Virus record (IMG/VR): IMGVR_UViG_2909246061_000001
Location: 1-41,135 of that record
Reading direction: 5' to 3' (one strand)
From: a virus
Taxonomy: Duplodnaviria; Heunggongvirae; Uroviricota; Caudoviricetes
DNA: 41,135 nucleotides
The stretch's first letter is position 1. Every line of letters begins with the position of its first letter. Under the pieces are notes generated by a model, which ran no database searches, was not told the origin of the DNA, and was given only the letters and a program-made list of their open reading frames with translations. Of the stretch, positions 1,956 through 32,176 are shown piece by piece. A program made the position numbers and the translations under genes.

Positions 1956-2231
1956 GTGGCTTCTGTTTATATCAGCTGTCCCTCCTGTTCAGCTACTGAC
2001 GGGGTGGTGCGTAACGGTAAAAGTACTGCCGGACATCAGCGCTATCTCTGCTCTCACTGCCGTAAAACATGGCAACTGCAGTTCACTTACACCGCTTCTC
2101 AACCCGGTACGCACCAGAAAATCATTGATATGGCCATGAATGGCGTTGGATGCCGGGCAACCGCCCGCATTATGGGCGTTGGCCTCAACACGATTTTCCG
2201 CCATTTAAAAAACTCAGGCCGCAGTCGGTAA
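1956..2231 (+). CDS. insA: IS1 transposition regulator InsA
   Basis: 91-aa zinc-finger protein [40 protein letters not shown] typical of IS1 InsA. Confidence 0.85.
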
Positions 2232-2653
2232 CCTCGCGCATACAGCCGGGCAGTGACGTCATCGTCTGCGCGGAAATGGACGAACAGTGGGGCTATGTCG
2301 GGGCTAAATCGCGCCAGCGCTGGCTGTTTTACGCGTATGACAGGCTCCGGAAGACGGTTGTTGCGCACGTATTCGGTGAACGCACTATGGCGACGCTGGG
2401 GCGTCTTATGAGCCTGCTGTCACCCTTTGACGTGGTGATATGGATGACGGATGGCTGGCCGCTGTATGAATCCCGCCTGAAGGGAAAGCTGCACGTAATC
2501 AGCAAGCGATATACGCAGCGAATTGAGCGGCATAACCTGAATCTGAGGCAGCACCTGGCACGGCTGGGACGGAAGTCGCTGTCGTTCTCAAAATCGGTGG
2601 AGCTGCATGACAAAGTCATCGGGCATTATCTGAACATAAAACACTATCAATAA
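2150..2653 (+). CDS. insB: IS1 InsB reading frame (expressed as InsAB' transposase by -1 frameshift at the tttaaaaaac motif near 2203..2212)
   Basis: ORF with canonical IS1 InsB sequence (…[29 protein letters not shown]…); A6C slippery run present. Confidence 0.8.
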
Positions 2654-3913
2654 GTTGGGACCATTACCCATTGGGGCATATTTATACTCGTCTATATGAC
2701 AGTTACTTTTTAAAATTTCACCCTTAAAATCCTCAATTATCTCTGAGTAAAATGATCTTAGTGCTTCATTTATTTTGAGATAGCTGTAATCATGTTCTGG
2801 CTTATAACCAATCAAAGTATATGCTCTTAAAAGACCACCAAATCGGGTTCTATAAACAGAAGATGAAGGGCCTGTATCATCTTCATCAATGATAAAGCCT
2901 GATAGTTTTCCATTAGATTCTAATTTTTGTTTTAGTTTTTCTAATAGATCTTCATTAGTCAAATGAATGGATCGGAGCTGAATTATTTCTTGAGCTTTAT
3001 TGTATTTTTTCTTTGAAATAATAGGTTTATATGCCTTGTCACATCTAACCCATTCATGTTTGGGGTTTTTTACAAGCCTACTTTTTAATTTAGATGAGGT
3101 TTTGTTATATATGTTGTTTCCAATATATTTTTCATTTGTCAAAATTTGATGTATTTTTGCACGAGTCCATAATGTTCCATTTTCTGCAGGTATGTTCTGT
3201 TCATTTAATCTCTCAGCAATAATGAATTCTGGGACGTTATTATCTATAAAGAGATCATATATTCTATTTACAATTTTTATTTCATTTTTTGGTCCCGGAA
3301 TTAATATTACCCTATCTGTTTGAATACTCTTTCTTTTGCGGAAACTCAATATTTCTTTAGCTATGCCATTTTCGTCTACTAAAAGACGTCTCAGCCCATA
3401 ACCAGCCATACCGCCTTGATGATAACCAAGCTTTATTAAATTTACTTGCCCTATAAATACCTTATCAGATAGATTCCTGCTGTGATATGCAGCACTAGAT
3501 CTTTTTATATTCAGTATAACAGAGGACTCTAAAGGGAAATCTTTAGTGGGTATAGGTTCGGAACAATATATAAGATCTACACCATTTCTCTCAAATAGAA
3601 AGGAATAATATGCCGCTTCATCACTATTTTGAAAACGACCAAAACGGCTCACATCATAAAATAATACAGCCTGTATATCTATTTTCTTTTGTTCTACATC
3701 GCTAAGTAACTGCTGCAAAGAATGCCTGCCTACGATACTGACTCCGCTCTTACCTGCATCATCGTAGGTATAAGCGATTTCCATATTGTTCTTTTCAGCA
3801 TAATCTTTGATATATTCGGACTGATTATGTAAAGAATATTGCTGATGGTCGGTAGACATCCTCAAGTACTGCGCGACCCTAACTCTATGATTTTTGTCAT
3901 TTTCGCTAGCCAT
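2588..3913 (-). CDS. large serine recombinase (resolvase-type catalytic domain plus recombinase domain); 3' end interrupted by IS1, so the last 27 codons are IS1-derived and the protein is probably non-functional
   Basis: N-terminal YLRMSTDHQ serine-recombinase motif; AT-rich; ORF crosses the IS1 right end at 2668. Confidence 0.6.
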
Positions 3914-4195
3914 GCACGAAACCTCATGGATGATTCAATACAATGTAGTGGATAAAATTGATCAAATTTCAACCGAATTCAACTGTTTTATCATTGATTA
4001 GAGCGAATTTGGTAGATCTTCGAGGTGTATGATAATCGAGAAGAGATGTGAATTATTTAGCTGATATGACCGACAGCTTTCGTTATGTGGACTCAATGTC
4101 CCCATTTGTAAATGGCTATGCTTAGTCCACATAGGTTAATGGTGTGATTATTAATTCTTTAACTAAATCAAGATAGTTAATCCATCATGGGAGAG

Positions 4196-5425
4196 TTATG
4201 CGGCAATAACTTTGCATTTTTGAGACGAAACATAGTCACTCCACCATTGCATGAGAACCACCCGTTCAGTGAGATACTCTGCACGATTGTAGGCTGCAAT
4301 TATTTCATCTTTCTTCGAGTGGGCAAGGGCGGCTTCTAAGACATCAGTCCTAAACTTGCCAGACTCCTCAGCAGCCGTTCTAGCAATGGATCGCATACCG
4401 TGAGCTACAAGCTCACCTCCGAAACCCATACGGATTATGGCCGCATTAGCTGTTTGTTCATGCATGTGATTGAGTGGAGCTTTGATACTGGGGAACACCC
4501 ACTCTCTATGCCCGCTGATGACTTTCATTAAATCCAAAACTCGCAAAGCTTCTTTGCTCAGTGGAACTTTGTGAGGCTTCTTCATTTTCATAAACTCCGC
4601 CGGGATGTTCCACATGCCAGTTTCAATATCAATATCTGACCATCTTGTGCGAACAGCTTCACCTGGGCGAACCCATGTGAGAAGTTGCCACTCAATCAGT
4701 AGCCTTGTTTCCAAACGGATAGAAGCATTGTTTAGAGCAACCAAGAAGCGAGGGAGTTCGGAAGGGGGTAATGCTGGCATATTCTGTTTTTTTGGCTTGC
4801 TGAACCGTTGCCCCAGGTTGTCTGCCGGGTTGAATTCTATGAGTTCTTCTGTTGCTGCATAGCGGAAAATTTCATTCAGGCGGGATATGATGCGGCGAAG
4901 TGTTTCAAGGACACCTCGTTTTTCTATGGGTTCTAAATGCTGTTTAAGCATTTTAGGGCGAATCTCCTTAATTGGGGTATCACCCAATGTGGAAAAGATA
5001 TTTCTCTCTAGGCTTCGCCAGATGTCGTTAGCATGATCTTGGGAGATGCCTGACGTTTTGACTTTCTCATCAAGCCACTTCTTGGCTACTGCTTGAAATG
5101 TATGTTCCGTGGCATCTTTCAGTGCATTGGCTTTTTGGTTGTTATGAACTTGGGGGTCTATACCATTTGTAAGCAACGACAAGTATTCATCACGTAAAGC
5201 TCGTGCCTTCGCAAGTGTAAGGTGAGGATAGGTTCCTAAGCTCACCTTAGTTCGCTTTTTGGTCACAGGCACTGCATATCTGAAATACCAATTTTTCTTC
5301 CCTCCCTTCGCCAGGGGAGCGATTCGCAACAGCAAACCATCGCCGTCAAAAAGGTTAACCTCTTTTTCGGCAGGTTTGGTGCTTTTGATTTCAGTGTCAG
5401 TGAGCTTCTTAGCGATTTTGGCCAT
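4196..5425 (-). CDS. tyrosine integrase, P4/CP4-57 IntA family
   Basis: N-terminus MAKIAKKLTDTEIKSTKP…DGDGLLLRI…WYFRY typical of P4-type integrases; C-terminal catalytic domain with …HGMRSIARTAAEESG… and YNRAEYLTER; probable ATG at 5425 (the track ORF extends to 5506); lies directly beside an ssrA 3'-end copy, as intA does beside ssrA in CP4-57. Confidence 0.85.
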   Translation of the reverse strand: MAKIAKKLTDTEIKSTKPAEKEVNLFDGDGLLLRIAPLAKGGKKNWYFRYAVPVTKKRTKVSLGTYPHLTLAKARALRDEYLSLLTNGIDPQVHNNQKANALKDATEHTFQAVAKKWLDEKVKTSGISQDHANDIWRSLERNIFSTLGDTPIKEIRPKMLKQHLEPIEKRGVLETLRRIISRLNEIFRYAATEELIEFNPADNLGQRFSKPKKQNMPALPPSELPRFLVALNNASIRLETRLLIEWQLLTWVRPGEAVRTRWSDIDIETGMWNIPAEFMKMKKPHKVPLSKEALRVLDLMKVISGHREWVFPSIKAPLNHMHEQTANAAIIRMGFGGELVAHGMRSIARTAAEESGKFRTDVLEAALAHSKKDEIIAAYNRAEYLTERVVLMQWWSDYVSSQKCKVIAA

Positions 5426-5522
5426 GTTTGGGACCCTCGATTTTAGGACCCATCTTCGTGGGTCCCATTCAGGGTGCCATAACTCGTAGTTCTCAGCAAT
5501 TCTCACTAGACTACAATAGACG

Positions 5523-5560
5523 TAAAAAAGCCCGCAGAGCTTGTGCTGTGCGGGCTTAGT
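5523..5560 (-). terminator. rho-independent terminator hairpin downstream (minus sense) of the ssrA 3'-end copy
   Basis: minus-strand gcccgcacagcacaagctctgcgggc followed by tttttt. Confidence 0.45.
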
Positions 5561-5587
5561 AGACTTTACTGAACTTCAGTACATCAA

Positions 5588-5636
5588 TATTTGGTGGAGC
5601 TGGCGGGAGTTGAACCCGCGTCCGAAATTCCTACAT
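5588..5636. repeat. 49-bp direct repeat identical to the ssrA 3' end; left att site of the P2-like prophage
   Basis: 5588..5636 is identical to 40072..40120 and the sequences diverge immediately outside both copies. Confidence 0.85.
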
Positions 5637-5768
5637 ACCATTTTTACTATAACAAAAACATGAACTTATGTTTAAAATCAGTGTGTTAGTATTATTTTGT
5701 GTTTGTCTGTTTTACGCATTTTTAATGCTCTGCCGCCAAAATGCCGCCACTGGTTTTGCTTGGGAGAC

Positions 5769-7289
5769 TTATTCAGGCTTTAATTTATTGATAATAGAAT
5801 CTACCATTTTAATGCCTGCCTCATTGACTATGACTGAATTGACTACTCTATCAAAATAGTCCTCTATATGGTGGGAAAATAGGAAAGCAGCACTTGATGG
5901 TTTTTTGTTCTTTTCAACTGCAGATTGCAAGACTTCATGAGGCGGAATTTTAAACCTTTTGCATGATGCAATGAGATATTCAAACTCTTCAAATGATAGA
6001 CAAAAAATATTCTCTGTAGGGATATGATAGTTATGTTTAAACTTGTCATATATCTTATTCATCTCATCTTTAGCATAAGTATTAGCTAGGATACTACCAT
6101 TGCCTAAGAAAAGGTTTTTATATGTAATGCAAATGATATATGAGTTAGCCCTGAATGGAGCTATTATTCGCTCATTAGAGTATATTTCTCGATTAACTTC
6201 GTGAGATTGTTCGATTGCTTTTAATACCGATTTCTTTATTTTTCCTGCAATATCCTCAGGGCGTAATGTTACCATGCCTTTTTGGTGTATCTCAACGCCT
6301 TTAGCATCAATGAAAATATTTGCCTCAGTATGTGGAATGAAATAATCAACTACTTTATTATCTTTAGGTAGTCGTTCTTTAAGGTATTTTTCGTTATGAA
6401 AATCAATTTCGCTTTCTTTTAGTATTAATTCCAGTGCATTTTCAAATACATTTCCAAAGCTATCCATGAACTTCTCGGCATCAGTTCTTCTTAAAAGATC
6501 ATATATGAACGTCTGTATGCTTGTTGAAGTCAGTTGTGTGTGTATCTGAAAATACTCTGAACCTTTTTTTATTAATGGTTTTTCAAGAAAAGGTGATGAT
6601 GAGTAGTATTCAAGCAAAGGTTTATCATAGGTTTTTGATTTGCAAAATGTAGATAGTTCATTGTAATTTATTGATATTGCATCAAGAAATTTCTCAATGG
6701 TATTTCTAGGAATGATGTCAAATAATATAGTAAATGTATCTACATTCATTTTTCTCACGGGATGCTCTTCTGTTATGTGAGTTATTAATATGTAAGATAG
6801 CTTAAGAAAGTCTTCGATAGATACATTCGTGATAGTAAAAAAACTTTTCTTTATTTTATGGTTTTTTTCAAGTTCTGAAAATAGAAAGACTTGTCTGCTA
6901 ATTGTGTTTAGAGCGTCAATTTTCTGGTAGATTCCTTGTTGGTATAGATTATTTCTAATGAAGAAATGCATGCCATTCTTCCTCTCAAGACCGATAGGAA
7001 TAATGTTCAAGGTTTCATAAGTTTTTTGGAAGAGTTTTATTGCTTGATTTTTATCGAGGATTTTGAATTTTTTATTCTTGCCAGTTACTGACGCAGACCA
7101 CTTTAGACATAAATTAACAATCCAAGGCATGTGTCGTAACATGTGGATATTATCTTCAAATTTTTGTAAGTTATATTGCATACAGAATTCGATAAATAAA
7201 TCAGGGGAATAACCTTGGATTTCTGAACGAATAGCATCCATTCTTAACTTTGCAACCGCATCAGATTGAATATCTAATTTTTGAATCAC
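5769..7289 (-). CDS. hypothetical 506-aa protein; AT-rich cargo gene between the prophage integrase and the left att
   Basis: long ORF with GTG start and GGAGA RBS 13 bp after the int stop; very low GC against the phage backbone; I recognise no fold; possible PD-(D/E)xK-like signature VVDYF…IFIDAKG. Confidence 0.6.
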   Translation of the reverse strand: MIQKLDIQSDAVAKLRMDAIRSEIQGYSPDLFIEFCMQYNLQKFEDNIHMLRHMPWIVNLCLKWSASVTGKNKKFKILDKNQAIKLFQKTYETLNIIPIGLERKNGMHFFIRNNLYQQGIYQKIDALNTISRQVFLFSELEKNHKIKKSFFTITNVSIEDFLKLSYILITHITEEHPVRKMNVDTFTILFDIIPRNTIEKFLDAISINYNELSTFCKSKTYDKPLLEYYSSSPFLEKPLIKKGSEYFQIHTQLTSTSIQTFIYDLLRRTDAEKFMDSFGNVFENALELILKESEIDFHNEKYLKERLPKDNKVVDYFIPHTEANIFIDAKGVEIHQKGMVTLRPEDIAGKIKKSVLKAIEQSHEVNREIYSNERIIAPFRANSYIICITYKNLFLGNGSILANTYAKDEMNKIYDKFKHNYHIPTENIFCLSFEEFEYLIASCKRFKIPPHEVLQSAVEKNKKPSSAAFLFSHHIEDYFDRVVNSVIVNEAGIKMVDSIINKLKPE

Positions 7290-7301: not shown

Positions 7302-8315
7302 CTACAAATTATAAAGAGGATTTTTAGTCACCGCGTCTTCAAGGTGATCGGGCGAAAAGTGGGCGTAAATCATGGTCATTTTTATATCGGCATGACCCAA
7401 AATATCACGCAGTACCAGTATGTTTCCGCCGTTCATCATAAAGTGACTGGCGAATGTATGGCGAAGCACGTGGGTACATTGGCCCTCCGGTAGGTCAATA
7501 CCGGCCCGCTTTACTGCCCGCTCAAAGGCTTTTCTGCATGGCGTGAATAACTTTCCTCTGTTTTTGGGGAGTTCATCATACAGATCCTGAGATATCGGCA
7601 CAGTACGGTTTTTCTTGCCTTTTGTTTTTGTATAAGTAATTCGGTATTTCGATATTTGATGGCCCTGCAGATTTTCGGCTTCACTCCACCGTGCGCCAGT
7701 AGCCAGACATATTTTTGCAATCATTAGTAAGCTAGGGCTTTGAGATTCAGCACATGCCGCCAACAGGCGCTTGATTTCGTCCGTGGAAAGAAAAGCCAGC
7801 TCACCTTCGGCAATTTTGAAGGTCGGAAGTCCTGCCAGCGGGTTTGGTGCTGACCAGTGTCCTAGTTTTTTTAATGTACCGAACACAGATGATAGATTGC
7901 GCTGTTCAAGGTTTACCGTGCGGGGCTTAACGGGCGACATCAGCGTGCCATCTTCATTTCGCACTTCACCTTTTAGCCGTGCTTCGCGGTATTTCGTAAA
8001 GTCACCGGCAGTCAGCTCTGAAGCGATGGGATCGCCCAGACCATTACAGATAATTCCAAGTTTCGCCATGAGTCGCTTGGGGTCTGCGAGTGTTTGACCA
8101 TACAGGGAATACCACAGCTCAATTAATTCTGATAGGTGTCGCCGATCTTCCTTTTCTCCCAGCCAAGGTTTCTTGTTTACCTCGTCCATGGTGAAATTCT
8201 CAAACGCAATGGCTTCGCCTTTCGTCGCAAATTGTTTGCGTACGCGTTTGCCATCTCGCCCGTTTGGGTAGCATTCACATAACCACTTTCCGTTCGGCTG
8301 TTTTCTGATGGTCAT
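7302..8315 (-). CDS. int: P2/186-type tyrosine integrase
   Basis: 337 aa, same length as P2 Int; C-terminal motifs ARWSEA…HVLRHTFASHFMMNGGNILVLRDILGHADIKMTMIYAHF. Confidence 0.9.
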   Translation of the reverse strand: MTIRKQPNGKWLCECYPNGRDGKRVRKQFATKGEAIAFENFTMDEVNKKPWLGEKEDRRHLSELIELWYSLYGQTLADPKRLMAKLGIICNGLGDPIASELTAGDFTKYREARLKGEVRNEDGTLMSPVKPRTVNLEQRNLSSVFGTLKKLGHWSAPNPLAGLPTFKIAEGELAFLSTDEIKRLLAACAESQSPSLLMIAKICLATGARWSEAENLQGHQISKYRITYTKTKGKKNRTVPISQDLYDELPKNRGKLFTPCRKAFERAVKRAGIDLPEGQCTHVLRHTFASHFMMNGGNILVLRDILGHADIKMTMIYAHFSPDHLEDAVTKNPLYNL

Positions 8316-10900: not shown

Positions 10901-11754
10901 GCACCATCCTGAAATGGGCGGGAAATAAAACCGCCATTATGTCCGAACTGAAAAAACACCTTCCTGCTGGCCCGCGACTGGTTGAACCTTTCGCGGGTTC
11001 CTGTGCTGTGATGATGGAGACGGATTACCCCAGCTATCTGGTTGCGGATATTAATCCTGATTTAATCAACCTCTATAAAAAGGTTGCCGCTGATTGTGAA
11101 TCGTTTATATCTCGCGCCAGAGTTTTATTTGAGATCGCAAACAGGGAGGTGGCTTATTACAACATAAGGCAGGAGTTTAATTACTCCACTGAAATTACTG
11201 ATTTCATGAAAGCGGTATATTTCCTGTATCTCAATCGTCACGGTTACCGTGGTTTATGTCGCTATAACAAGAGCGGGCATTTCAACATTCCCTACGGTAA
11301 TTATAAAAATCCGTATTTCCCTGAAAAAGAAATTCGCGCATTTGCAGAAAAAGCCCAGCGGGCAACGTTTATCTGCGCCAGCTTTGATGAAACGCTGGCG
11401 ATGTTGAAGGCGGGGGATGTGGTGTATTGCGATCCGCCGTATGACGGCACGTTTTCCGGTTATCACACTGACGGCTTCACTGAAGATGACCAGTATCACC
11501 TGGCATCCGTTCTTGAACATCGGTCATCAGAAGGACATCCGGTCATTGTTTCTAACAGTGACACATCCCTGATCCGTTCGCTGTATCGCAATTTTACTCA
11601 CCACTACATCAAGGCAAAACGCAACATCGGTGTGGCAGCTGGAGAGGGTAAATCAGCAACAGAAATCATTGCTGTTTCCGGGCCGCGCTGCTGGGTGGGA
11701 TTTGATTATTCGCGTGGCGTGGACAGTTCTGCCGTGTACGGAGTACGTGCATGA
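10897..11754 (+). CDS. dam: DNA adenine methyltransferase (Dam-like, orphan)
   Basis: N-terminal ILKWAGNK…EPFAGSCAV AdoMet-binding motif and DPPY catalytic motif; no partner endonuclease nearby. Confidence 0.85.
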
Positions 11755-14165
11755 GTCATGCCGATATGAACAACTGCTGCGGCTTTAACGAGGCTGCCGC
11801 AGCATTCTCATGGAACAGCCCGAAAAAGGCCATTAACCCTTATCTGGACCCGGCGGAAGTTGCGCCGGTTTCTGCGCTTTCAAACCTGATCACTCTGTAC
11901 GCTGCCGATAACGAGCAGGAACAACTGCGCCGCGAGGCACTGAGTGATCAGGTCTGGGAGCGTTATTTCTTTAATGAATCCCGTGATCCTGTCCAGCGCG
12001 AAATGGAGCAGGATAAGCTAATTAGCCGGGCAAAGCTGGCGCATGAGCAGCAGCGTTTTAATCCAGACATGGTCATTCTGGCGGATGTCAACGCCCAGCC
12101 TTCCCATATCAGCAAGCCGCTGATGCAACGTATTAAATACTTCAGCAACCTGGGCAGGCCAAAGGCTTATTCCCGCTATTTGCGTGAGACGATTAAGCCA
12201 TGCCTGGAACGACTGGAGCATGTACGCGACAGCCAGCTATCTGCATCTTTTCGTTTTATGGCAAGCCATGAAGGGCTGGACGGTCTGCTGATCCTGCCTG
12301 AAATGAGTCAGGATCAGGTGAAACGCCTGTCCACCCTTGTCGCTGCGCATATGAGCATGTGTCTTGATGCCGCTTGTGGTGATTTGTACGCCTCCGATGA
12401 TGTTAAGCCGGAAGAAATCCGCAAGACATGGGAAAAGGTGGCAGCAGAAACCCTGCGACTGGATGTCATACCGCCTGCGTTTGAGCAACTCCGCCGGAAA
12501 AGAAACCGCCGCAAACCTGTGCCCTATGAACTCATTCCGGGTTCGCTGGCGCGTATGCTGTGCGCCGACTGGTGGTATCGAAAATTATGGAAGATGCGTT
12601 GCGAATGGCGGGAAGAGCAGTTGCGTGCTGTCTGTCTGGTCAGCAAAAAAGCATCTCCCTATGTCAGCTATGAAGCCGTGATGCATAAACGTGAGCAGCG
12701 CCGTAAGTCGCTGGAGTTTTTCCGTTCTCATGAACTGGTGAACGAAGACGGCGACACGCTGGACATGGAGGATGTGGTAAACGCCAGCAGCAGCAACCCT
12801 GCGCATCGCCGCAATGAGATGATGGCCTGTGTTAAAGGCCTGGAGCTTATCGCGGAAATGCGCGGTGACTGCGCCGTTTTCTACACCATCACCTGTCCGT
12901 CACGTTTCCATTCCACGCTAAATAACGGCAGGCCCAACCCGACCTGGACAAATGCGACGGTAAGACAAAGCAGTGATTATCTGGTTGGCATGTTTGCTGC
13001 ATTTCGTAAGGCGATGCACAAAGCCGGATTGCGCTGGTATGGCGTGCGGGTGGCTGAGCCGCATCATGACGGTACAGTTCACTGGCACCTGTTGTGTTTT
13101 ATGCGCAAAAAAGATCGCCGCGCCATTACTGCTTTGTTGCGTAAGTTTGCCATTCGTGAAGACCGCGAGGAGCTGGGGAATAACACGGGACCACGCTTTA
13201 AGTCTGAGTTGATTAACCCGCGCAAAGGAACGCCGACAAGCTACATCGCGAAATATATCAGTAAGAACATTGACGGGCGTGGTCTGGCTGGCGAGATCAG
13301 CAAGGAAACGGGTAAATCCCTGCGTGATAACGCTGAATACGTGAATGCCTGGGCGTCTCTGCATCGTGTTCAGCAATTCCGCTTCTTTGGCATTCCGGGG
13401 CGTCAGGCTTACCGTGAACTGCGATTGCTGGCTGGTCAGGCGGCAAGGCAACAGGGTGACAAAAAAGCAGGTGCGCCGGTACTGGATAACCCGCGCCTTG
13501 ATGCAATCCTGGCTGCTGCTGATGCTGGTTGTTTTGCCACCTACATCATGAAGCAGGGCGGCGTACTGGTTCCCCGTAAATATCACCTCATCAGAACTGC
13601 TTATGAAATCAACGAAGAGCCGACCGCCTATGGCGATCACGGCATTCGTATTTATGGCATCTGGTCACCTATTGCAGAGGGCAAGATCTGCACTCATGCC
13701 GTGAAGTGGAAAATGGTTCGTAAGGCCGTTGACGTTCAGGAGGCGGCAGCCGACCAGGGCGCTTGCGCCCCTTGGACTCGTGGCAATAACTGTCCCCTTG
13801 CTGAAAATTTGAACCAACAAGGGAAAGACAAATCAGCTGATGGGGATACCAGAACGGACATTACCCGCATGGATGACAAGGAGTTGCACGAATACCTGCA
13901 CAGTATGAGCAAAAAAGAGCGCCGGGAACTGGCTGCAAGGTTACGCCTGGTGAAACCGAAACGGCGTAAAGACTACAAACAGCGAATTACAGACCATCAG
14001 CGACAGCAGCTCGTCTATGAACTGAAGTCCAGAGGATTTGATGGCAGCGAGAAAGAGGTCGATTTACTCCTTCGCGGCGGCAGTATTCCGTCAGGAGCAG
14101 GCCTGCGTATCTTCTATCGGAACCAGCGTTTGCAGGAAGATGATAAGTGGCGGAACCTGTATTAA
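11751..14165 (+). CDS. A: P2 gpA-type replication initiation endonuclease
   Basis: 804 aa; HUH-type motif VHWHLLCF and catalytic Tyr region [12 protein letters not shown]. Confidence 0.9.
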
Positions 14166-14516: not shown

Positions 14517-14750
14517 ATGCGCATTGAAATAATGATCGATAAAGAGCAGAAGATTAGCCAGTCTACCCTGGACGCCCTTGAATCCGAGCTTTACCGCAAT
14601 CTGCGCCCCCTGTATCCCAAAATGGTAATTCGCATCCGCAAAGGTAGCTCTAACGGTGTGGAACTGACCGGACTGCAACTGGACGAAGAAAGAAAACAAG
14701 TGATGAAGATTATGCAGAAGGTGTGGGAAGACGACAGCTGGCTGCATTAA
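14517..14750 (+). CDS. DinI-family protein
   Basis: MRIEIMIDKEQKISQSTLDALESEL…KVWEDDSWL resembles E. coli DinI (MRIEVTIAK…); track ORF 14445..14750 trimmed to the internal ATG at 14517. Confidence 0.7.
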   Translation: MRIEIMIDKEQKISQSTLDALESELYRNLRPLYPKMVIRIRKGSSNGVELTGLQLDEERKQVMKIMQKVWEDDSWLH

Positions 14751-14909
14751 GAAAAGTTGCTGGCGTCTGAACTTGGTTCTGGCGTCAGCAAGGTTGAACA
14801 ACGAGTACAGTGAGGCGTTAGGTGTGGCGTTTATTTGATGAGTGAACGCCCGTTCTGCGACAGGTTCGGAGATTAAGGTTGAAACTACGGGCAAAATACC
14901 ATCTTTTTC

Positions 14910-15335
14910 CTACTTAATTGAGTCCAGTAACAAGTTACAGTTACTCTCATTGTAGAGAGAACGAGCAATTAGTGTTACCTGCTTTCCATTCATTCCCGGC
15001 TTATCCCATAACACAGCTTCTTGCGACGCCACAAATTCAGCATAATCAATTATGCGTTGTTCGTGATCTGGTTCCTCATAGCCAAAGTATGAGAGCGCAT
15101 CGTTGTAAGCGTGGTAAGCTGCTTTCTGTAATATCTTGATATCGGCTGTAGGTACTTGCTCCGTGTAGCTAGGATCTAATTGTGTGCTACTGCCATAGAA
15201 TGCACATGAAAGGTAAGATATTGATTTCTGTTGAGCTTTAGTTCCTTTCTCATAGTTTTTAGCTGTTACCGCCTGAACTGGGACGCTAACAAAGCTTGCA
15301 ACCAGAATTAAAATTAATACGTAAAAGCTTTTCAT
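14910..15335 (-). CDS. small secreted protein of unknown function (141 aa, signal peptide)
   Basis: N-terminus MKSFYVLILILVASFVSVPVQA with probable cleavage after VQA; AT-rich; opposite strand to neighbours; on the A side of cos. Confidence 0.55.
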   Translation of the reverse strand: MKSFYVLILILVASFVSVPVQAVTAKNYEKGTKAQQKSISYLSCAFYGSSTQLDPSYTEQVPTADIKILQKAAYHAYNDALSYFGYEEPDHEQRIIDYAEFVASQEAVLWDKPGMNGKQVTLIARSLYNESNCNLLLDSIK

Positions 15336-15678
15336 TTTGACCTCAGCCGAAACGTTAGAGAGACTATCGAAATTTGTAAAACCCGTGGCGATTCAGTTTG
15401 AGATCCTCCCCCTTACATGATTTTTAATCAAATATATGCTTTTGTAAGCATACCTGTTAACCGAATTATTTATTTTTAGAGATCTTCCGACATACTGATT
15501 ATGCCCGCTGAGGAGTTCACCTTGCGTAAGGTCCGATTCGCTTTACTCGTCTGTGCATGTCTATGCTGCATGAGATTGCATGATCGTTTGAGGATCGTTT
15601 TTGCTAAGGCCCGCCAGAACTGGCGGGCTTTTGCGTAGATCATGCACCTGCATGAAAACCACTACATAAAGCGGGCAG

Positions 15679-15697
15679 GCGTGGCGGGGATACGAGC
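15679..15697. other. putative cos site (cohesive-end region) of the P2-like phage
   Basis: ggcgtggcggggatacgag matches the first 12 nt of the 186 cos (GGCGTGGCGGGG…) and resembles P2 cos GGCGAGGCGGGGAAAGCAC. Confidence 0.4.
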
Positions 15698-15763: not shown

Positions 15764-17416
15764 ATGTCATTAGACTATATTAAAGAACAGTTGTCAGACT
15801 TTATTTCATCTGCAGAACCTGAGGTAATGGCTATTCAGGGTGAGTGGGGGATTGGGAAAACCTATACTTGGAATGCTTTCTTAAAGGAAAATAAAAATAA
15901 GATTGCATTTAATAGATATAGTTACGTCTCTCTTTTTGGTGTTAATTCATTGGACGCATTAAAATACTCCATCTTTGAAAATACAATTACGAAAGATTTC
16001 ATTGGAAACAAACCTAATTTAAAAACAGCAACACAAAATGCAAAGGGGCTTCTTGAATCCTGCACTAGAAAGACCGCTCGTGTGTTAAAAGATACACCTT
16101 TTTTGAAAAATTTCACTACGACACTTGAGTCAATGTCATTTATGTCAATTACTAATGTTATTGTAGTCATAGATGACTTAGAAAGACGTGGTAAAAATTT
16201 AGAAGTGAAAGATGTCTTAGGGTTGGTTTCTTTATTGAAAGAACAAAAAAATTGTAAGGTGGTTCTTTTACTTAATAACGGGACAAGTGGTATGGATGAC
16301 TACTCCACTTATAAAGAAAAGGTTATTGATAGAGAGATTACCTATAATCCTACTCCAGAAGAATGTGCAGTTATAGCATATAAAAATAATTCTGATGTTC
16401 ATAAATTATTAAGCAAATACTCCATTTCCCTGGGTATTAAGAATATTAGGATACTGAAAAAAATAGAGCGGTTTTTGCTAGCCTTGTTACCTGGCATTAA
16501 CGTTAATTTTGAAAAAATTGCAAATGAAGTCGCACACTCCTTAACTTTGTATTGTTGGAGTCATTACGCATTTACTCCAGATGGAGATGTACCATCATTG
16601 GAGTATATTAGAAATATGAGAAATATCTATATGCGTGATGAAAAAGAGGATGGAAAAGAAAAAAAATGGCTTAATACTTTGCTTATATATGATTATAAAA
16701 AAACAAACGAACTTGATGAAGTCCTTATAGACATGGTAAAGCATGGATATATTGATATGAACAATTTCCAAAGGCAAGTAAGTCTAAGGAATGATGAACT
16801 TATCCGTGATAGTAAGCGAGGTTCACTGTTTGAAGCATGGAAGCTTTTCTATAATTCATTTGAAGATAACCGAAATCAGGTTATTGATAATCTATATCAA
16901 GCGGTGGTTGGTGGGATAGAGTATGTAACTCCAAGTGACTTGGATAGTGTTGTCGGACTGTATAGAGATTTAGGTGAAAATATTCAAGCAAGTGAATTAA
17001 TAAGTAAATTTATTAATTACGGCAATGATGCTCTTAAGGAATATGTTCAATCTATTTACATGAATGTTCATCCTATAAAAGATGCTGAGTTAAAGTCAAA
17101 AATCCAAGATTATTCTACTACTTTAAATCTGGATGGTTCTATAAAGGATGTTCTAATAAAATTATCAAGTCAGAATGGTTGGTCTGATAGGCACGAGGAA
17201 ATATTGGATGCTGCCTCAGAGGATGACTACTATGATTTATTTAAAAAAGTCATTCTTGATGGTGGTGATTCAATAATAGCTACTGCTCTTAAGTTTGGTG
17301 GGTATAGCAATGGTTCAGAAAGAATGAAACGCATCGGAGAAAAAGCGAGAAATGCTTTGATAAGAATTGGAAATGAGTCGAGCATTAATAAAATACGTGT
17401 TAGACGGTATTTGTAA
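15764..17416 (+). CDS. KAP-family P-loop NTPase-like protein (551 aa from the ATG at 15764); candidate anti-phage cargo
   Basis: Walker A GEWGIGKT (15839..15862) and Walker B VIVVIDDLER (about 16160..16186) in KAP-type spacing; GGAG RBS before ATG 15764; perfect TATAAT at 15728..15733; AT-rich; followed by a terminator hairpin. Confidence 0.7.
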   Translation: MSLDYIKEQLSDFISSAEPEVMAIQGEWGIGKTYTWNAFLKENKNKIAFNRYSYVSLFGVNSLDALKYSIFENTITKDFIGNKPNLKTATQNAKGLLESCTRKTARVLKDTPFLKNFTTTLESMSFMSITNVIVVIDDLERRGKNLEVKDVLGLVSLLKEQKNCKVVLLLNNGTSGMDDYSTYKEKVIDREITYNPTPEECAVIAYKNNSDVHKLLSKYSISLGIKNIRILKKIERFLLALLPGINVNFEKIANEVAHSLTLYCWSHYAFTPDGDVPSLEYIRNMRNIYMRDEKEDGKEKKWLNTLLIYDYKKTNELDEVLIDMVKHGYIDMNNFQRQVSLRNDELIRDSKRGSLFEAWKLFYNSFEDNRNQVIDNLYQAVVGGIEYVTPSDLDSVVGLYRDLGENIQASELISKFINYGNDALKEYVQSIYMNVHPIKDAELKSKIQDYSTTLNLDGSIKDVLIKLSSQNGWSDRHEEILDAASEDDYYDLFKKVILDGGDSIIATALKFGGYSNGSERMKRIGEKARNALIRIGNESSINKIRVRRYL

Positions 17417-17452: not shown

Positions 17453-18481
17453 CTAATTCAATGAATAATCTTTGAAGGCTATTATTTTTTTCTTTAGCCA
17501 AATATTAATTTCTACAAGTCTTTTTTGTAAAGGAGTTAACTCATTTCGCACAAAAACGCAACTGGCTTTTTCTATATCCCCAACCCCCCCAACATTGTTT
17601 GGCATTATCCCCATCATCTGCGGCGGCACACGATGCGCCGCCATCATGTCATCCCGACTTACGTTCTTGATGTTAAGAAATTCATCCTTCGCCGCGACTT
17701 CTGACAATGGGATGATCTGAAGCCCGTCTTTTTTGCCGTTAGGCGAGTACATAAACAGGTTGCGGAAGTTGCCTGGACCTTTGGCACTTTTCATCGCGTT
17801 GCGGAGGTTGTTCACATCCTCCTGATTCTGCGCGGCGTCGGTCATGTACATGATGAAGCCTGCATGGCTGCCGTTGATGTAATACTTACGGCGGAACAGC
17901 GTGGCGGACTCGTTGAGCAGGGCGGATGGAATGGCAGAAAGATAGCCGGGCAGGCCGTAGATCTCCTGGTTGATGTCCGGTTCCATCAGATGAAAAATGC
18001 TGCCTTTCGTGAACTGATACGGCTGGGTTGTCATACCGTATTGCACAAACCAGTAGGTATCCAGGTCTAACCCACGTCGGGTGTATTTTGCCAGAGCAGG
18101 CTCAAGGGCGATAACTTCACCGAACCGGTTCGTGCGTTTCTCCAGGTAAGCGTTACCAAATACCAGATAGTCCTGCACAAAACGTGAAAAAGCCTGCTGG
18201 CTGAGAAGCGGGTGAGGGATGTAGGTACTGGTCAGAATGTTGCATTTCACCGCAATTGGTGAACTGTGATGCACGGCAGCGCGGAAGGTTCGCGCCAGTC
18301 CGTCAAAACTCACTGGCGGCTCATACCAGCGATCTGTCTGTACGCATTCTACATAGTCCAGCAGTTCGCGGCGGTCCAGAACAGGAACGGGATCGCCAAA
18401 GCTGAATGCTTCGGCTGAAGTCTGGCTTTTGTGCTGAATCTGGTTCGTCGACACAGCGCGGTTCTTCTTACTCTTTCCCAT
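17453..18481 (-). CDS. Q: portal protein (P2 gpQ)
   Basis: about 342 aa, same size and position as P2 Q; ATG at 18481 overlaps the P stop. Confidence 0.9.
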   Translation of the reverse strand: MGKSKKNRAVSTNQIQHKSQTSAEAFSFGDPVPVLDRRELLDYVECVQTDRWYEPPVSFDGLARTFRAAVHHSSPIAVKCNILTSTYIPHPLLSQQAFSRFVQDYLVFGNAYLEKRTNRFGEVIALEPALAKYTRRGLDLDTYWFVQYGMTTQPYQFTKGSIFHLMEPDINQEIYGLPGYLSAIPSALLNESATLFRRKYYINGSHAGFIMYMTDAAQNQEDVNNLRNAMKSAKGPGNFRNLFMYSPNGKKDGLQIIPLSEVAAKDEFLNIKNVSRDDMMAAHRVPPQMMGIMPNNVGGVGDIEKASCVFVRNELTPLQKRLVEINIWLKKKIIAFKDYSLN

Positions 18482-20247
18482 CAAAAAATCTCCACAATAT
18501 TGCTGGTATTGGCGGACTCGCCCTGCAGCGGTTCGTTAAACAGTGCGTGCATTGTTGCCCACGCCAGATCGGCATGGCTGGCTTCTTCGCTGCGGCTGGC
18601 TTCATAGGTCGGGCGGTTGCCGCTGGCGGTGGTGGCGCGACGGATTGCCATAAATGACTGCGCTATGTCGGTGTGTCCGGCGTCAAACTCCAGACGGCGG
18701 TGGCTGATAATGTCGTAGGCCTTGAGTACCAGGGCGTTTTTAACGTTGGGGTTGTAGACAAACTCCCGGACGGCAGGAAAGAACGCTTTTACGTTCTCAT
18801 AAACCCCGTGACCGACACCTGTCGAGTCGATACCGATATAGGTCACGTTGTACTGTTCAGTCAGTTTTTTGATGGCGTCCGCCTGGGCACGGAAGTCCAT
18901 CCCGCGCCACTGGTGACGCTCAAGAATGCGGAACTTACCGCCCGGCACGGCTGGCGGAGCCACCACCACGCACCCGGCGCTGTCGCCGTTTTGCGTACCT
19001 TTTGCCGGGTCATAACCGATCCACACTTCGCGCCAGCCAAACGGGCGCAGGGCCAGTGCATGAAAGTCGGTCCAGACTTCCCAGCTGTCCACCATGCAGG
19101 CCTGCAGCTCGCTGAGCGGGAACACGGACGCGAGATCGTCCACGAATTCACACATCAGCAGGTTCTGGTATTCGTCCGGGCTGTATTCCATGCGCAACTG
19201 GTCAAGGTCGAACAGGTTACAGCCGCCGCGAACCGCATCTTCCACGGTGACTATCTGGCGGTATTGCCCGTCTGCACACAGCAGGCCTGGAGCCAGATTG
19301 CTGTGGGACAGGTCTATGTCCACCTTGTCGGCTTTATTGCGCCCACGGTTGAATAGCGCACCGGACCAGAACGGATAAGCACTGTGTGTCAGGCTGGATG
19401 GCGTGGAAAAATAGGTTTGTCGCCATTTTTTGTGAATAGCCATACCGGAAGCCACTTTGCGCAGCTCCTGGAATTTCGGTATCCAGAAATATTCATCCAG
19501 ATACAGGTTGCCGTGGTAACTCTGGGCCGTGCGGGCATTGGTGCCGAGGAAATACAGTGTGGCCCCGTTGGGAAGCACCATCGGATCGCCTTTCAGCTCC
19601 ACTTCCACTTCTTTGGCGAAGTCGATGATGTACTGCTTAAAGACGTGGGCCTGTGCCTTGCTGGCGGAAAGGAAAATCTGGTTACGTCCGGTCAGCAGGG
19701 CGTCAATCAGGGCTTCACGGGCAAAGTAAAAGGTCGCGCCGATCTGGCGTGACTTCAGCAGGTTGCGGATGCGGTTGGTTTTTCCGGCTTCCCACCAGTG
19801 GCGCTGGTAGTTGAACATGGAGGAATGGAAGATTTCTTCCAGCTTCTCAATCTGTTCATCGGTGAAGACATTTTTTTCCGGCTGACGGCGCGGGCCTTTG
19901 TTGCGGTTGGCGACGTTAGGGTTTAAGTCGGCTTCGTTGCCGCCATTGTTAAACTTGCCGATCCGCGCGTGGCGCTCAGACTGGCGCGCCAGCAGGTCAA
20001 TCTCTTTGAAATCTTTCCCTTCTTTGTGCTCCTTCATAATGAGCTGGCAGTAGCGTGCGGCGGTGGTGAGCTGCATCTGATCCAGTGGCCCATAGTCACC
20101 CCACTTGTCGCGTTTTTTCCAGCTGTGAACGGTTGCAACTTTCTCGCCCAGCATTTCAGCAATGCGGGCTACGCGGTATCCCTGAAAGTACAGCAGCATG
20201 GCCTGCCGACGGGGATCGAGATCTGCGGGTGTCAGTGTGGTGTTCAT
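18481..20247 (-). CDS. P: terminase large (ATPase) subunit (P2 gpP)
   Basis: 588 aa; typical P2 P order directly upstream of Q. Confidence 0.9.
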   Translation of the reverse strand: MNTTLTPADLDPRRQAMLLYFQGYRVARIAEMLGEKVATVHSWKKRDKWGDYGPLDQMQLTTAARYCQLIMKEHKEGKDFKEIDLLARQSERHARIGKFNNGGNEADLNPNVANRNKGPRRQPEKNVFTDEQIEKLEEIFHSSMFNYQRHWWEAGKTNRIRNLLKSRQIGATFYFAREALIDALLTGRNQIFLSASKAQAHVFKQYIIDFAKEVEVELKGDPMVLPNGATLYFLGTNARTAQSYHGNLYLDEYFWIPKFQELRKVASGMAIHKKWRQTYFSTPSSLTHSAYPFWSGALFNRGRNKADKVDIDLSHSNLAPGLLCADGQYRQIVTVEDAVRGGCNLFDLDQLRMEYSPDEYQNLLMCEFVDDLASVFPLSELQACMVDSWEVWTDFHALALRPFGWREVWIGYDPAKGTQNGDSAGCVVVAPPAVPGGKFRILERHQWRGMDFRAQADAIKKLTEQYNVTYIGIDSTGVGHGVYENVKAFFPAVREFVYNPNVKNALVLKAYDIISHRRLEFDAGHTDIAQSFMAIRRATTASGNRPTYEASRSEEASHADLAWATMHALFNEPLQGESANTSNIVEIF

Positions 20248-30241: not shown

Positions 30242-30847
30242 ATGATGAATAAAGCTGTATTAAATAGCGAACTCATTGCCATAAAAGCGGGAGACATTAT
30301 CATTTATAATTATGATGGTGAAACGCGGGAATATATTTCTACATCAACTGAATATCTCGCTGTCGGCGTCGGTATCCCGGCATGTTCCTGTTTGGATGCA
30401 CCAGGTATACATAAAGCTGGTTATGCAATCTGTCGCTCTGTAGATTTAAATTCATGGGAATATGTGCCAGACCATCGCGGTGAAGTTGTCTATAGTACCG
30501 AAACGGGAGATACCAGAGAAATCACAGTTCCGGGTGATTACCCTGAAAATACAACCACTATCGCCCCATTAACGCCATACGATAAATGGGATGGTGAGAA
30601 ATGGGTGACCGATACTGAGGCACAGCATAGCGCCGCAGTAGAAGCGGCAGAAGCACAGCGCCAGTCACTGATTGATGCAGCAATGGCTTCCATTAGTCTG
30701 ATTCAGCTGAAATTACAGGCCGGGCGGAAACTGACGCAGGCAGAAACAACCCGGCTTAACGCTGTGCTGGATTACATTGACGCGGTGACGGCAACAGATC
30801 CCAGCACCGCGCCGGATGTCATCTGGCCTGAACTGCCGGAGGCGTAG
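30242..30847 (+). CDS. tail fibre assembly protein (Tfa, P2 gpG-like)
   Basis: C-terminal …[14 protein letters not shown] typical of Tfa; start overlaps the restored end of H. Confidence 0.8.
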
Positions 30848-31247
30848 GCCATTCAATATCGGGTGCTGTTGAAGTATCAACACGCATCAGCAGCACTCGG
30901 TATTTCTTCCATTCGGTGAGAGTTGAAGTTTCTTCATCAGTTGCGATATCAGCATCAACAGCATCCTGACGCCAGGATATTTCACTGTCAGCTTTTTCCC
31001 GTAATTGGGATTTTTTAACTTCAGCAATAGCTATTAATTCCTTTTGGGTCGGCTGAGGAATATCTATCAGTGCTGGTTTTCCATTCAGTGTTCCAATCTG
31101 TTTTCCTGGTGGAATATCCATAAATAACTTTTTATGTTCTTCCTCACTGACTATTACACCATCATCAGGCCACAGACCTGATGCCTCAAATTTTTCTTTC
31201 TCCGATATGGGGAAAAAGCCATTTGCTTTAGCGCTCCATACGTACAT
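30819..31247 (-). CDS. alternative tail fibre assembly protein (Tfa') in the invertible segment
   Basis: opposite strand; C-terminal …[14 protein letters not shown] typical of Tfa. Confidence 0.75.
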
Positions 31248-31372
31248 ATCAATACCCCACCGCTATAATGTCCACATTAAATCCCCGGGACCTGCCTGCC
31301 AGATGCTGGCCCCTGTTAATGATTTTGTTTGATGAACAACCGCCACATTTGCTGGCGATTGTGTTTCAGTTG

Positions 31373-31541
31373 TTACAGTACCGATATCATTCCAGTTAAT
31401 TGAGATGGAATAGTTCGTTGTTGTAAACGACCGGGGAAAGTTATGTGTCTTACATTGGTGCCAACAGGAAATCCAAGATAAACACGCTGAATTATCATTC
31501 CTCCAGGTAACATAACCCAGTTAGCACCTTCTCCAAAACCA
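31373..31541 (-). other. alternative tail-fibre C-terminal segment (Hv'), fused to H after inversion; short and possibly degenerate
   Basis: minus-strand frame encodes …INVGFGEGANW…, sharing the G(L/F)GEG junction with H at the crossover site. Confidence 0.45.
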
Positions 31542-31554
31542 ACGTTTATAAAAA
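31529..31554. repeat. right crossover site of the tail-fibre inversion system (hix/gix-like, 26 bp)
   Basis: ttctccaaaaccaacgtttataaaaa resembles hixL TTCTTGAAAACCAAGGTTTTTGATAA; inverted relative to the 29726 site; just upstream of the invertase gene. Confidence 0.5.
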
Positions 31555-31609
31555 TGCAGAGATAACGGCTAACTGGCATCATCCCCGGTTTTTATTCAGG
31601 GGATTGATC

Positions 31610-32176
31610 ATGCTTATTGGCTATGTACGCGTGTCAACAAATGACCAGAACACCGATTTGCAACGTAATGCACTGAACTGCGCGGGATGTGAGCGGATTT
31701 TTGAGGACAAAATCAGTGGCACTAAGTCCGACAGACCGGGACTGAAAAAACTGCTCAGGACATTATCGGCAGGTGACACTCTGGTTGTCTGGAAGCTGGA
31801 CAGGTTGGGGCGCAGTATGCGGCATCTCGTTACGCTGATAGAAGAGCTGCGCCAGCGTGGCGTGAATTTCCGAAGCCTGACTGACAGTATTGATACCAGT
31901 ACCCCAATGGGCCGTTTCTTTTTTCATGTCATGGGTGCCTTGGCTGAAATGGAACGCGAACTGATAGTTGAACGTACCAGGGCGGGGATTGCTGCAGCTC
32001 GCGACAAAGGCAGAGTAGGTGGACGCCGTCCTAAGTTGACCACCGAACAGTGGGCACAGATTGGACGTTTACTAGAGGCCGGAGAATCAAGACAGCGTAT
32101 TGCACTGATTTTTGATGTGGGCGTTTCTACCATTTATAGAAAATTTCCGGCAAATAAGAGCAGTGAATCCCCCTGA
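31610..32176 (+). CDS. site-specific DNA invertase, Hin/Gin/Cin/Pin family serine recombinase
   Basis: MLIGYVRVSTNDQNTDLQRNAL…VVWKLDRLGRSMRHL…C-terminal HTH; nearly identical N-terminus to e14 Pin. Confidence 0.9.
   Translation: MLIGYVRVSTNDQNTDLQRNALNCAGCERIFEDKISGTKSDRPGLKKLLRTLSAGDTLVVWKLDRLGRSMRHLVTLIEELRQRGVNFRSLTDSIDTSTPMGRFFFHVMGALAEMERELIVERTRAGIAAARDKGRVGGRRPKLTTEQWAQIGRLLEAGESRQRIALIFDVGVSTIYRKFPANKSSESP

Follow-up and report, generated by a model that had tools for sequence, protein, structure and literature searches.

ORF141, a predicted exported single-gene cargo protein encoded beside cos in a P2-like prophage and a candidate for envelope-stage phage exclusion

Results

ORF141 lies between a DinI-like gene and cos

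The window, by which we mean the whole 41,135-nucleotide stretch of DNA analyzed here (IMG/VR record IMGVR_UViG_2909246061_000001), carries a P2-like prophage with an integrase, gene A, portal gene Q, terminase, and capsid and tail genes (Table 1). Between its DinI-like gene and cos lies ORF141, encoded on the strand opposite the early operon and transcribed away from cos. To the left of the P2-type integrase, we observed a 506-aa ORF (5769-7289, minus strand) with no Pfam hit and, further left, a second tyrosine integrase (4196-5506), a large serine recombinase (2588-3913), and an IS1 transposase fragment; region 2150-7289 may represent extra cargo or a second integrated element. Elsewhere in the window, a serine invertase (31604-32176; Resolvase and HTH_7) adjoins opposed tail-fiber-assembly genes (30242-30847, plus strand, and 30819-31247, minus strand), which suggests that region 30242-32176 is an invertible tail-fiber, host-range segment.

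Table 1. Position and description of the features at and around the ORF141 locus
Feature	Position	Strand	Description
P2-type integrase	7302-8315
Replication gene A	11751-14165
DinI-like gene	14517..14750	+	PF06183, E 1e-22; convergent with ORF141, 160 bp apart
Weak imperfect hairpin, then CUUUUCUU	14757..14791	-	Candidate ORF141 terminator
ORF141 CDS	14910..15335	-	141-aa precursor plus stop, ATG start
ORF141 mature protein	14913..15269	-	Predicted; 119 aa, 13.4 kDa, pI about 5.1, five helices
ORF141 signal peptide, residues 1-22, MKSFYVLILILVASFVSVPVQA	15270..15335	-	Predicted SPase I cleavage after VQA22
Shine-Dalgarno GAGG	15341..15344	-	5 nt before ORF141 ATG; direct sequence reading
Sigma-70-like promoter candidate	15431..15460	-	TTAACA, 18-nt spacer, TATATT; 10/12 consensus matches
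16-nt palindrome ATGCTTacaaAAGCAT	15436-15451	-	In promoter spacer
Strong GC hairpin GCCCGCCAG aact CUGGCGGGC, then UUUUG	15606-15630	+	-27.6 kcal/mol, z -4.1
cos-like 19-mer GGCGTGGCGGGGATACGAG	15678..15696	+	Sole match in window; bounds ORF141 slot
KAP-family P-loop NTPase	15764..17416	+	PF07693; PADLOC PDC-S49, E 2e-25
Portal gene Q	17453-18484	-

The minus-strand ORF at 14910-15335 is exactly the 141-aa, ATG-initiated ORF given in a preliminary description of this DNA. Its Shine-Dalgarno sequence is kept in two orthologous loci, L040 and L041, and pairwise comparison of the copy in the window with three orthologs (77-91% protein identity) gave dN/dS values of 0.14-0.27. ORF141 is a real gene under purifying selection. 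The GC content of the gene is 40.4%, compared with 49.2% for the whole window and 52-54% for the flanking phage backbone, in agreement with the preliminary view of ORF141 as AT-rich cargo. The product is identical to RefSeq WP_000834899.1, a 'hypothetical protein' found at the same locus in RefSeq genomes, and is covered from end to end by the profile phrog_7437 (residues 1-141 on positions 1-141 of 141, E 4.3e-99), which is annotated as being of unknown function.

To place the gene relative to P2, we compared the cos-like site of the window with the P2 cosL/cosR sequence, GGCGAGGCGGGGAAAGCAC, and found that ~130 bp to the left of the site align with the P2 cos-adjacent region. In the P2 record, leftward transcription of the old-tin mRNA begins about 150 bp from cosR. 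Because cos could be located and both slot and orientation are the same in the P2 record, the earlier assignment of ORF141, between the DinI-like gene and cos, to a position equivalent to tin/old is correct. ORF141 and old-tin share a slot between the early/replication operon and cos, leftward transcription from cos, a low GC content, and dispensability for the phage, but old-tin extends over ~2.7 kb, whereas ORF141 is one 426-bp gene. The proteins themselves appear unrelated: blastp of ORF141 against Tin and Old returned only chance matches of at most 9 residues, and homology to either was rejected. Judged from their sequence starts, Old and Tin lack an N-terminal signal peptide, whereas ORF141 carries an export signal; Old and Tin target intracellular stages of infection.

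The 160-bp spacing between ORF141 and the DinI-like gene is constant in the E. coli P2-like loci that reach that far (3 genomes and about 30 IMG/VR contigs). The DinI-like gene is absent from the orthologous loci L040 (91% identity) and L041 (89%). From this layout, we regard the DinI-like gene as a fixed left neighbor with no apparent functional tie to ORF141.

The sigma-70-like promoter candidate sits about 95 nt upstream of the ORF141 ATG and is largely kept in the P2-type loci L040 and L041, though not in the non-P2 locus L043; the region contains four sigma-70-like sites where 2.5 are expected, i.e., there is no enrichment. The palindrome within the promoter spacer is kept in L041 and degenerate in L040, and its loss there leaves an operator role unsupported. 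Downstream of the gene no significant terminator was seen, the one candidate hairpin (-12.3 kcal/mol, z -1.1) not being significant. The strong plus-strand hairpin that stands between the ORF141 promoter region and cos may terminate read-through out of the early operon. Because ORF141 has its own candidate promoter and is oriented away from cos like P2 old-tin, the P2-like prophage copy is probably made in the lysogen.

Two cargo slots evolve separately on either side of cos

Across cos from ORF141, the window carries a KAP-family NTPase gene of ~31-35% GC. In P2, the interval between cos and Q comprises just 168 bp and the tQ terminator, whereas in ORF141-carrying prophages it measures about 0.5-3.4 kb and falls into at least 10 size classes, with occupants that include the KAP NTPase (window), a PIN-domain protein (L002), a hypothetical protein (L003), and nothing (L041). 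Since the cos-Q interval varies and the spacing between ORF141 and the DinI-like gene is constant, the hypervariable slot lies on the Q side of cos. The preliminary placement of ORF141 in the tin/old position holds, with the refinement that the hypervariable slot is across cos, towards Q. By this comparison, the gpA-gpQ hotspot is made up of two slots that evolve separately and flank cos, and the ORF141 unit appears to be independent of the cos-Q occupant.

This arrangement bears on the idea that ORF141 is half of a two-gene defense system, together with the KAP NTPase or another gene across cos. ORF141 does adjoin a candidate defense NTPase (PADLOC PDC-S49), and the exact arrangement recurs in several genomes. 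However, the cos-side neighbor differs among genomes with the same ORF141 allele (at least 99% identity), and ORF141 and the KAP NTPase are divergent and parted by cos and the strong hairpin, so that we consider such a system highly improbable.

The hotspot has been surveyed before. In the available portion of Rousset et al. 2022 (PMC9122126), WP_000834899 occurs at least 32 times among P2 hotspot loci as 'hypothetical'. One entry there consists of a hypothetical protein, a KAP_NTPase, a second hypothetical protein, and DinI, as in the window, and the accession also appears in arrangements with HIRAN or DUF262/DUF1524 proteins (PMC9122126). Within that same portion, ORF141 falls outside the systems described as cloned and tested, its sequence was not found in Table S5B, and the hotspot cargo includes non-defense partition systems and a cytolethal distending toxin (PMC9122126). 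Because the hotspot also holds such non-defense cargo, position in the slot is by itself weak evidence for defense. ORF141 was likewise not found in the Vassallo 2022 supplements, and accession WP_000834899 is not mentioned in the literature searched. ORF141 is thus already catalogued, in databases and in a hotspot list, yet uncharacterized.

ORF141 is predicted to be a soluble helical protein of the periplasm

To evaluate the signal peptide claimed in the preliminary description, we applied a rule-based script that considers the n-, h-, and c-regions, the -3/-1 rule, and the lipobox. The n-region of the leader has a single Lys near the start of the precursor, the h-region reaches a mean Kyte-Doolittle value of 3.26 across 10 residues, and V-Q-A precedes the predicted cleavage site, in keeping with the -3/-1 rule at residue 22; the same check found no lipobox at the ORF141 N-terminus. 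These features fit a typical cleavable type I Sec signal peptide. Rule-based calls gave the same architecture in 21 of 21 family members, and because it is shared by all of them despite differing sequences, the call is strengthened. One of the 21 has a lipobox in addition to the signal-peptide architecture. In a 125-aa homolog from Enterobacter roggenkampii (P0005), a lipobox (LSAC) replaces the SPase I site and the C-terminus is altered; this protein could have decayed or could represent a lipoprotein form of the family.

Two cysteines, C44 and C133 of the precursor (22 and 111 in mature numbering), are invariant. Among full-length family members, W110 is also invariant and N132 nearly so. 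By structural element, helix 3 and the C-terminal helix are the most conserved, the loop that follows helix 3 ranks next, and mid-helix 1 around C44 is likewise well conserved. The most conserved stretch of the family, IIDYAEFVASQEAVLWDKPGMN, spans helix 3 and the next loop, and homologs at 24-40% identity retain this long motif together with the signal peptide and both cysteines.

AlphaFold2 (AF2) modeling of mature ORF141 with 21 sequences yielded a pLDDT of 95.5 and a pTM of 0.88, with all five models above 95, whereas a run with 7 sequences and the signal peptide left on gave a mediocre model (pLDDT 76). The predicted helices comprise residues 3-31, 41-62, 69-88, 98-108, and 111-118 in mature numbering. 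In the model, mature ORF141 is a compact five-helix domain, predicted with confidence, and contains no transmembrane helix. Taken together, it is very probable that ORF141 is exported by Sec, is cleaved after VQA22, and yields a soluble, acidic, 13.4-kDa periplasmic product with a C44-C133 disulfide; the disulfide is proposed because the cysteines are invariant and the predicted location is periplasmic.

Among solved structures, the fold matches ranked highest cover 55-75 of the 119 residues and consist of coiled coils, helical hairpins, and designed bundles; a few alignments are longer, reaching up to 103 residues, and these involve membrane proteins. We read these matches as indicating that the modeled fold has no specific homolog among solved structures. 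A Foldseek search of the model against BFVD, which holds predicted viral structures, gave a best E-value of 0.35, and PDB sequence profiles yielded one chance match (E 1.3) in one search and none in a second. We detected neither a catalytic motif nor a cofactor site nor a membrane segment in mature ORF141, and for this reason its action is most likely stoichiometric, through binding of another protein, rather than catalytic.

ORF141 belongs to a small family found in Enterobacterales

Among 5426 complete E. coli genomes, 100 carry ORF141, in every case on the chromosome and at no less than 99% DNA identity, and the carriers include human, animal, and food isolates. By comparison, 1277 genomes match some part of a 1.1-kb query that runs from the end of the DinI-like gene through ORF141 into the cos region. 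Because most P2-like prophages are without the gene (100 of 5426 genomes compared with 1277 that match the query), ORF141 is evidently dispensable.

The wider family is small. A word-indexed search of 5.8 billion proteins recovered 7 clusters, and an exhaustive HMMER search over 1.84 billion cluster representatives gave 14 credible hits, along with three further weak ones to long repetitive proteins. With a few extra relatives contributed by profile search, the total is about 20 clusters among billions of proteins. Family members are 126-145 aa long, truncated fragments and three apparently N-terminally extended members aside. All named source organisms are Enterobacterales, with Escherichia, Klebsiella, Hafnia, Enterobacter, Salmonella, Citrobacter, Siccibacter, and Rahnella represented.

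Searches of annotated collections gave little. At E<=1, ORF141 had no match in Pfam-A, and 15 family members yielded just four unrelated singleton hits; none of the defense families in PADLOC-DB 2.0 matched ORF141 at the same threshold, and tblastn against GenBank phages gave no match. NCBIfam produced sub-threshold noise only, namely LolA, whose score of 11 bits compares with a cut-off of 157. P0036, which shares a 90% cluster with the window protein, is named 'outer membrane lipoprotein-sorting protein' in one source; this is likely a misannotation that probably goes back to the sub-threshold LolA similarity.

Homologs recur as single genes in six genomic contexts

Outside the P2-type loci, an ortholog (L043, 77% identity) lies downstream of tail-tip and tail-spike genes in a non-P2 phage, where homology to the ORF141 locus extends from about 25 nt before the ATG to the stop codon. 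In L041, ORF141 is the sole cargo between A and Q. The members found elsewhere are distant (23-36% identity). Homologs in L046 and L050 lie in a lambdoid early-left operon between recombination genes and MT-A70/int, while those in L004, L047, L049, and L051 are beside the integrase of prophages integrated at mqo-eco, where start and stop codons often overlap. A further homolog (L009) is at a prophage end, near umuDC, DinI, and a tail spike, and another (L012) is found on IncFIB plasmids of about 110 kb with phage genes. Most contexts read are thus prophages or phage-like plasmids, the exception being L006-L008, in which the homolog is on an IS/mer-flanked Salmonella plasmid; every non-plasmid copy inspected falls within a prophage or an integrase-linked element or at its border.

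Within the mqo-eco group, L004, L049, and L051 (Klebsiella and Siccibacter) are three different prophages or integrated elements at the same site by mqo-eco, with tqsA between the element and mqo-eco in both Klebsiella loci. The integrases of L004 and L051 are related, and L049 has a short integrase-like ORF only.

We grouped these settings into six context classes: the P2 tin/old slot, mqo-eco prophages, lambdoid early-left operons, post-tail-spike positions, phage-like plasmids, and an IS-flanked plasmid. An all-against-all comparison of neighbors across the six classes revealed no conserved partner gene, the ORF141 homolog itself being all that is shared. Judged by its surroundings, ORF141 is an autonomous single-gene cargo module, or 'moron', of temperate phages, and it is horizontally mobile on its own, among temperate phages as well as phage-like plasmids.

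In three other phage types, the homolog is co-oriented with early genes and its start and stop codons overlap with theirs, which points to expression in lytic growth. Such placement raises the possibility that ORF141 acts in the periplasm to aid the lytic cycle of its own phage, either in lysis timing, as an antiholin or an RI-like lysis-inhibition sensor, or in protection of progeny or the infected cell. Translational coupling within the early operons of lambdoid and mqo-eco prophages is consistent with this role, and T4 RI is likewise small, exported, and helical. A lysis cassette, however, never adjoins the gene in the loci read, most P2-like prophages do without it, and the P2-like copy runs antisense to the early operon, in a lysogenic-conversion slot and with its own candidate promoter. 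A lytic-cycle role is accordingly quite improbable in our estimation.

The same contexts weigh on a possible function as a host-fitness or virulence factor of the lysogen, in which ORF141 would be a periplasmic stress chaperone or envelope-signaling modulator in the format of HdeA/HdeB, Spy, or CpxP. Prophage morons often encode fitness factors, and an acidic, helical protein that is predicted to be periplasmic and is probably disulfide-bonded would suit such a task, as would carriage by isolates from humans, animals, and food. Pfam-A includes the HdeA, LTXXQ/CpxP-like, and Spy families, but no relevant match at E<=1 was obtained for any of the 15 members searched. The prophage or integrase linkage of every non-plasmid copy inspected also tells against this function, and the narrow, patchy distribution speaks against a general stress role. 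We rate a host-fitness function about as improbable as one in the lytic cycle.

ORF141 falls outside known inhibitor and exclusion families

The predicted properties of ORF141 are also those expected of an orphan inhibitor or immunity protein that shields the lysogen from competitors or the host by neutralizing an antibacterial enzyme acting in the periplasm. Its target might be a peptidoglycan amidase or glycosidase delivered by a T6SS, a bacteriocin of the colicin M or pesticin type, or the lysozyme of the host. Several T6SS immunity proteins (Tai4 and the Rap proteins) share the format predicted for ORF141, i.e., a small, Sec-exported, all-helical protein with one probable disulfide. In addition, a conserved loop such as the one after helix 3 is frequent in inhibitor proteins, and the family rides on mobile elements. 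On the other hand, no effector, Rhs, VgrG, or bacteriocin gene adjoins ORF141 in the contexts read in detail, and the fold searches returned no match to a solved T6SS immunity protein such as Tai4. Pfam-A holds models for lysozyme inhibitors (Ivy, MliC/PliC, PliG, and LprI/DUF1311), yet ORF141 matches no Pfam-A family. Against the pesticin immunity protein Pim of Yersinia pestis plasmid pPCP1, hhalign gave a probability of 0.2%, and homology was rejected even though both precursors are ~141 aa long and periplasmic. Placement in an early lytic operon in three phage types would also be odd for a gene that protects the lysogen, and we therefore hold an orphan immunity function to be unlikely.

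The preliminary description raised superinfection exclusion or the inhibition of an incoming lysozyme as examples of an envelope function. A functional analog in this sense is Spackle (Sp, gp61.3), the periplasmic inhibitor of the gp5 tail lysozyme of phage T4 and the textbook soluble periplasmic exclusion factor. Like ORF141, it is small and phage-encoded and has a signal peptide and cysteines, but Spackle is a 97-aa protein of a virulent phage, whereas ORF141 is a 141-aa precursor of a temperate one. When the two were compared with hhalign, the probability was 3% and just the first six residues (MKKFIF) were aligned; with the alignment limited to these residues, homology to Spackle was rejected.

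Other envelope-level systems, single proteins encoded by a phage or its host, differ from ORF141 in their format. According to the available portions of the respective papers, T5 Llp (PMC9586334) and P22 SieA (PMC10883804) block infection when the receptor is bound or the DNA enters, and the periplasmic HXS system (PMC13128918) acts at these same stages. HXS requires a radical-SAM maturase and His-x-Ser repeats, and ORF141 has neither. ORF141 is predicted to be soluble and helical, unlike the lipoproteins Llp and Cor and the membrane protein SieA. Cor, from phi80/N15/T1-like phages, is a further envelope-level exclusion protein; SieA resides in the inner membrane. By these comparisons, ORF141 lies outside every exclusion, immunity, and inhibitor family considered here.

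Discussion

The analysis describes ORF141 as a prophage-borne cargo gene for a single protein that is predicted to be exported. We propose that its most likely role is envelope-stage interference with an incoming phage, to which we assign a probability of roughly 40%. Superinfection exclusion or receptor masking fits best because the function must suit both the lysogen and the infected cell and because the gene is mostly phage-carried. The genomic context is compatible with an envelope function that serves the phage; T4 sp and imm and T5 llp are early genes. The finding of the family only in Enterobacterales would also fit a target peculiar to the envelopes or the phages of these bacteria.

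In the mechanism that we envisage for such interference, ORF141 would bind a tail-tip, ejection, or peptidoglycan-hydrolase component of the incoming phage in the periplasm. Alternatively, its partner might be a receptor or entry route, bound from the periplasmic side. In either case, ORF141 would work as a superinfection-exclusion or receptor-masking protein in the manner of Spackle, Llp, and Cor, without kinship to them. The predicted C44-C133 disulfide would staple the C-terminal helices to helix 1, and the best candidate for the binding surface is the best-conserved patch, made up of helix 3 with the LWDKPGMN loop, the surroundings of C133, and SYLSCAFYG in helix 1.

In E. coli, few factors that exclude phages at the envelope stage are, to our knowledge, understood, and very rarely is such a factor a soluble periplasmic protein. 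More tentatively, and with some doubt, we suggest that ORF141 might found a new family of superinfection-exclusion proteins, soluble in the periplasm and encoded by temperate enterobacterial phages, with helix 3 and the LWDKPGMN loop as the capture surface and with use both in the lysogen and early in the lytic cycle.

At present, ORF141 is one of many uncharacterized hotspot genes, and no specific mechanism is indicated yet. If it excludes phages, ORF141 would offer a 119-residue, single-gene handle on how phage DNA and tail components cross the periplasm; if instead it neutralizes a toxin or lysozyme, it would represent a new inhibitor fold.
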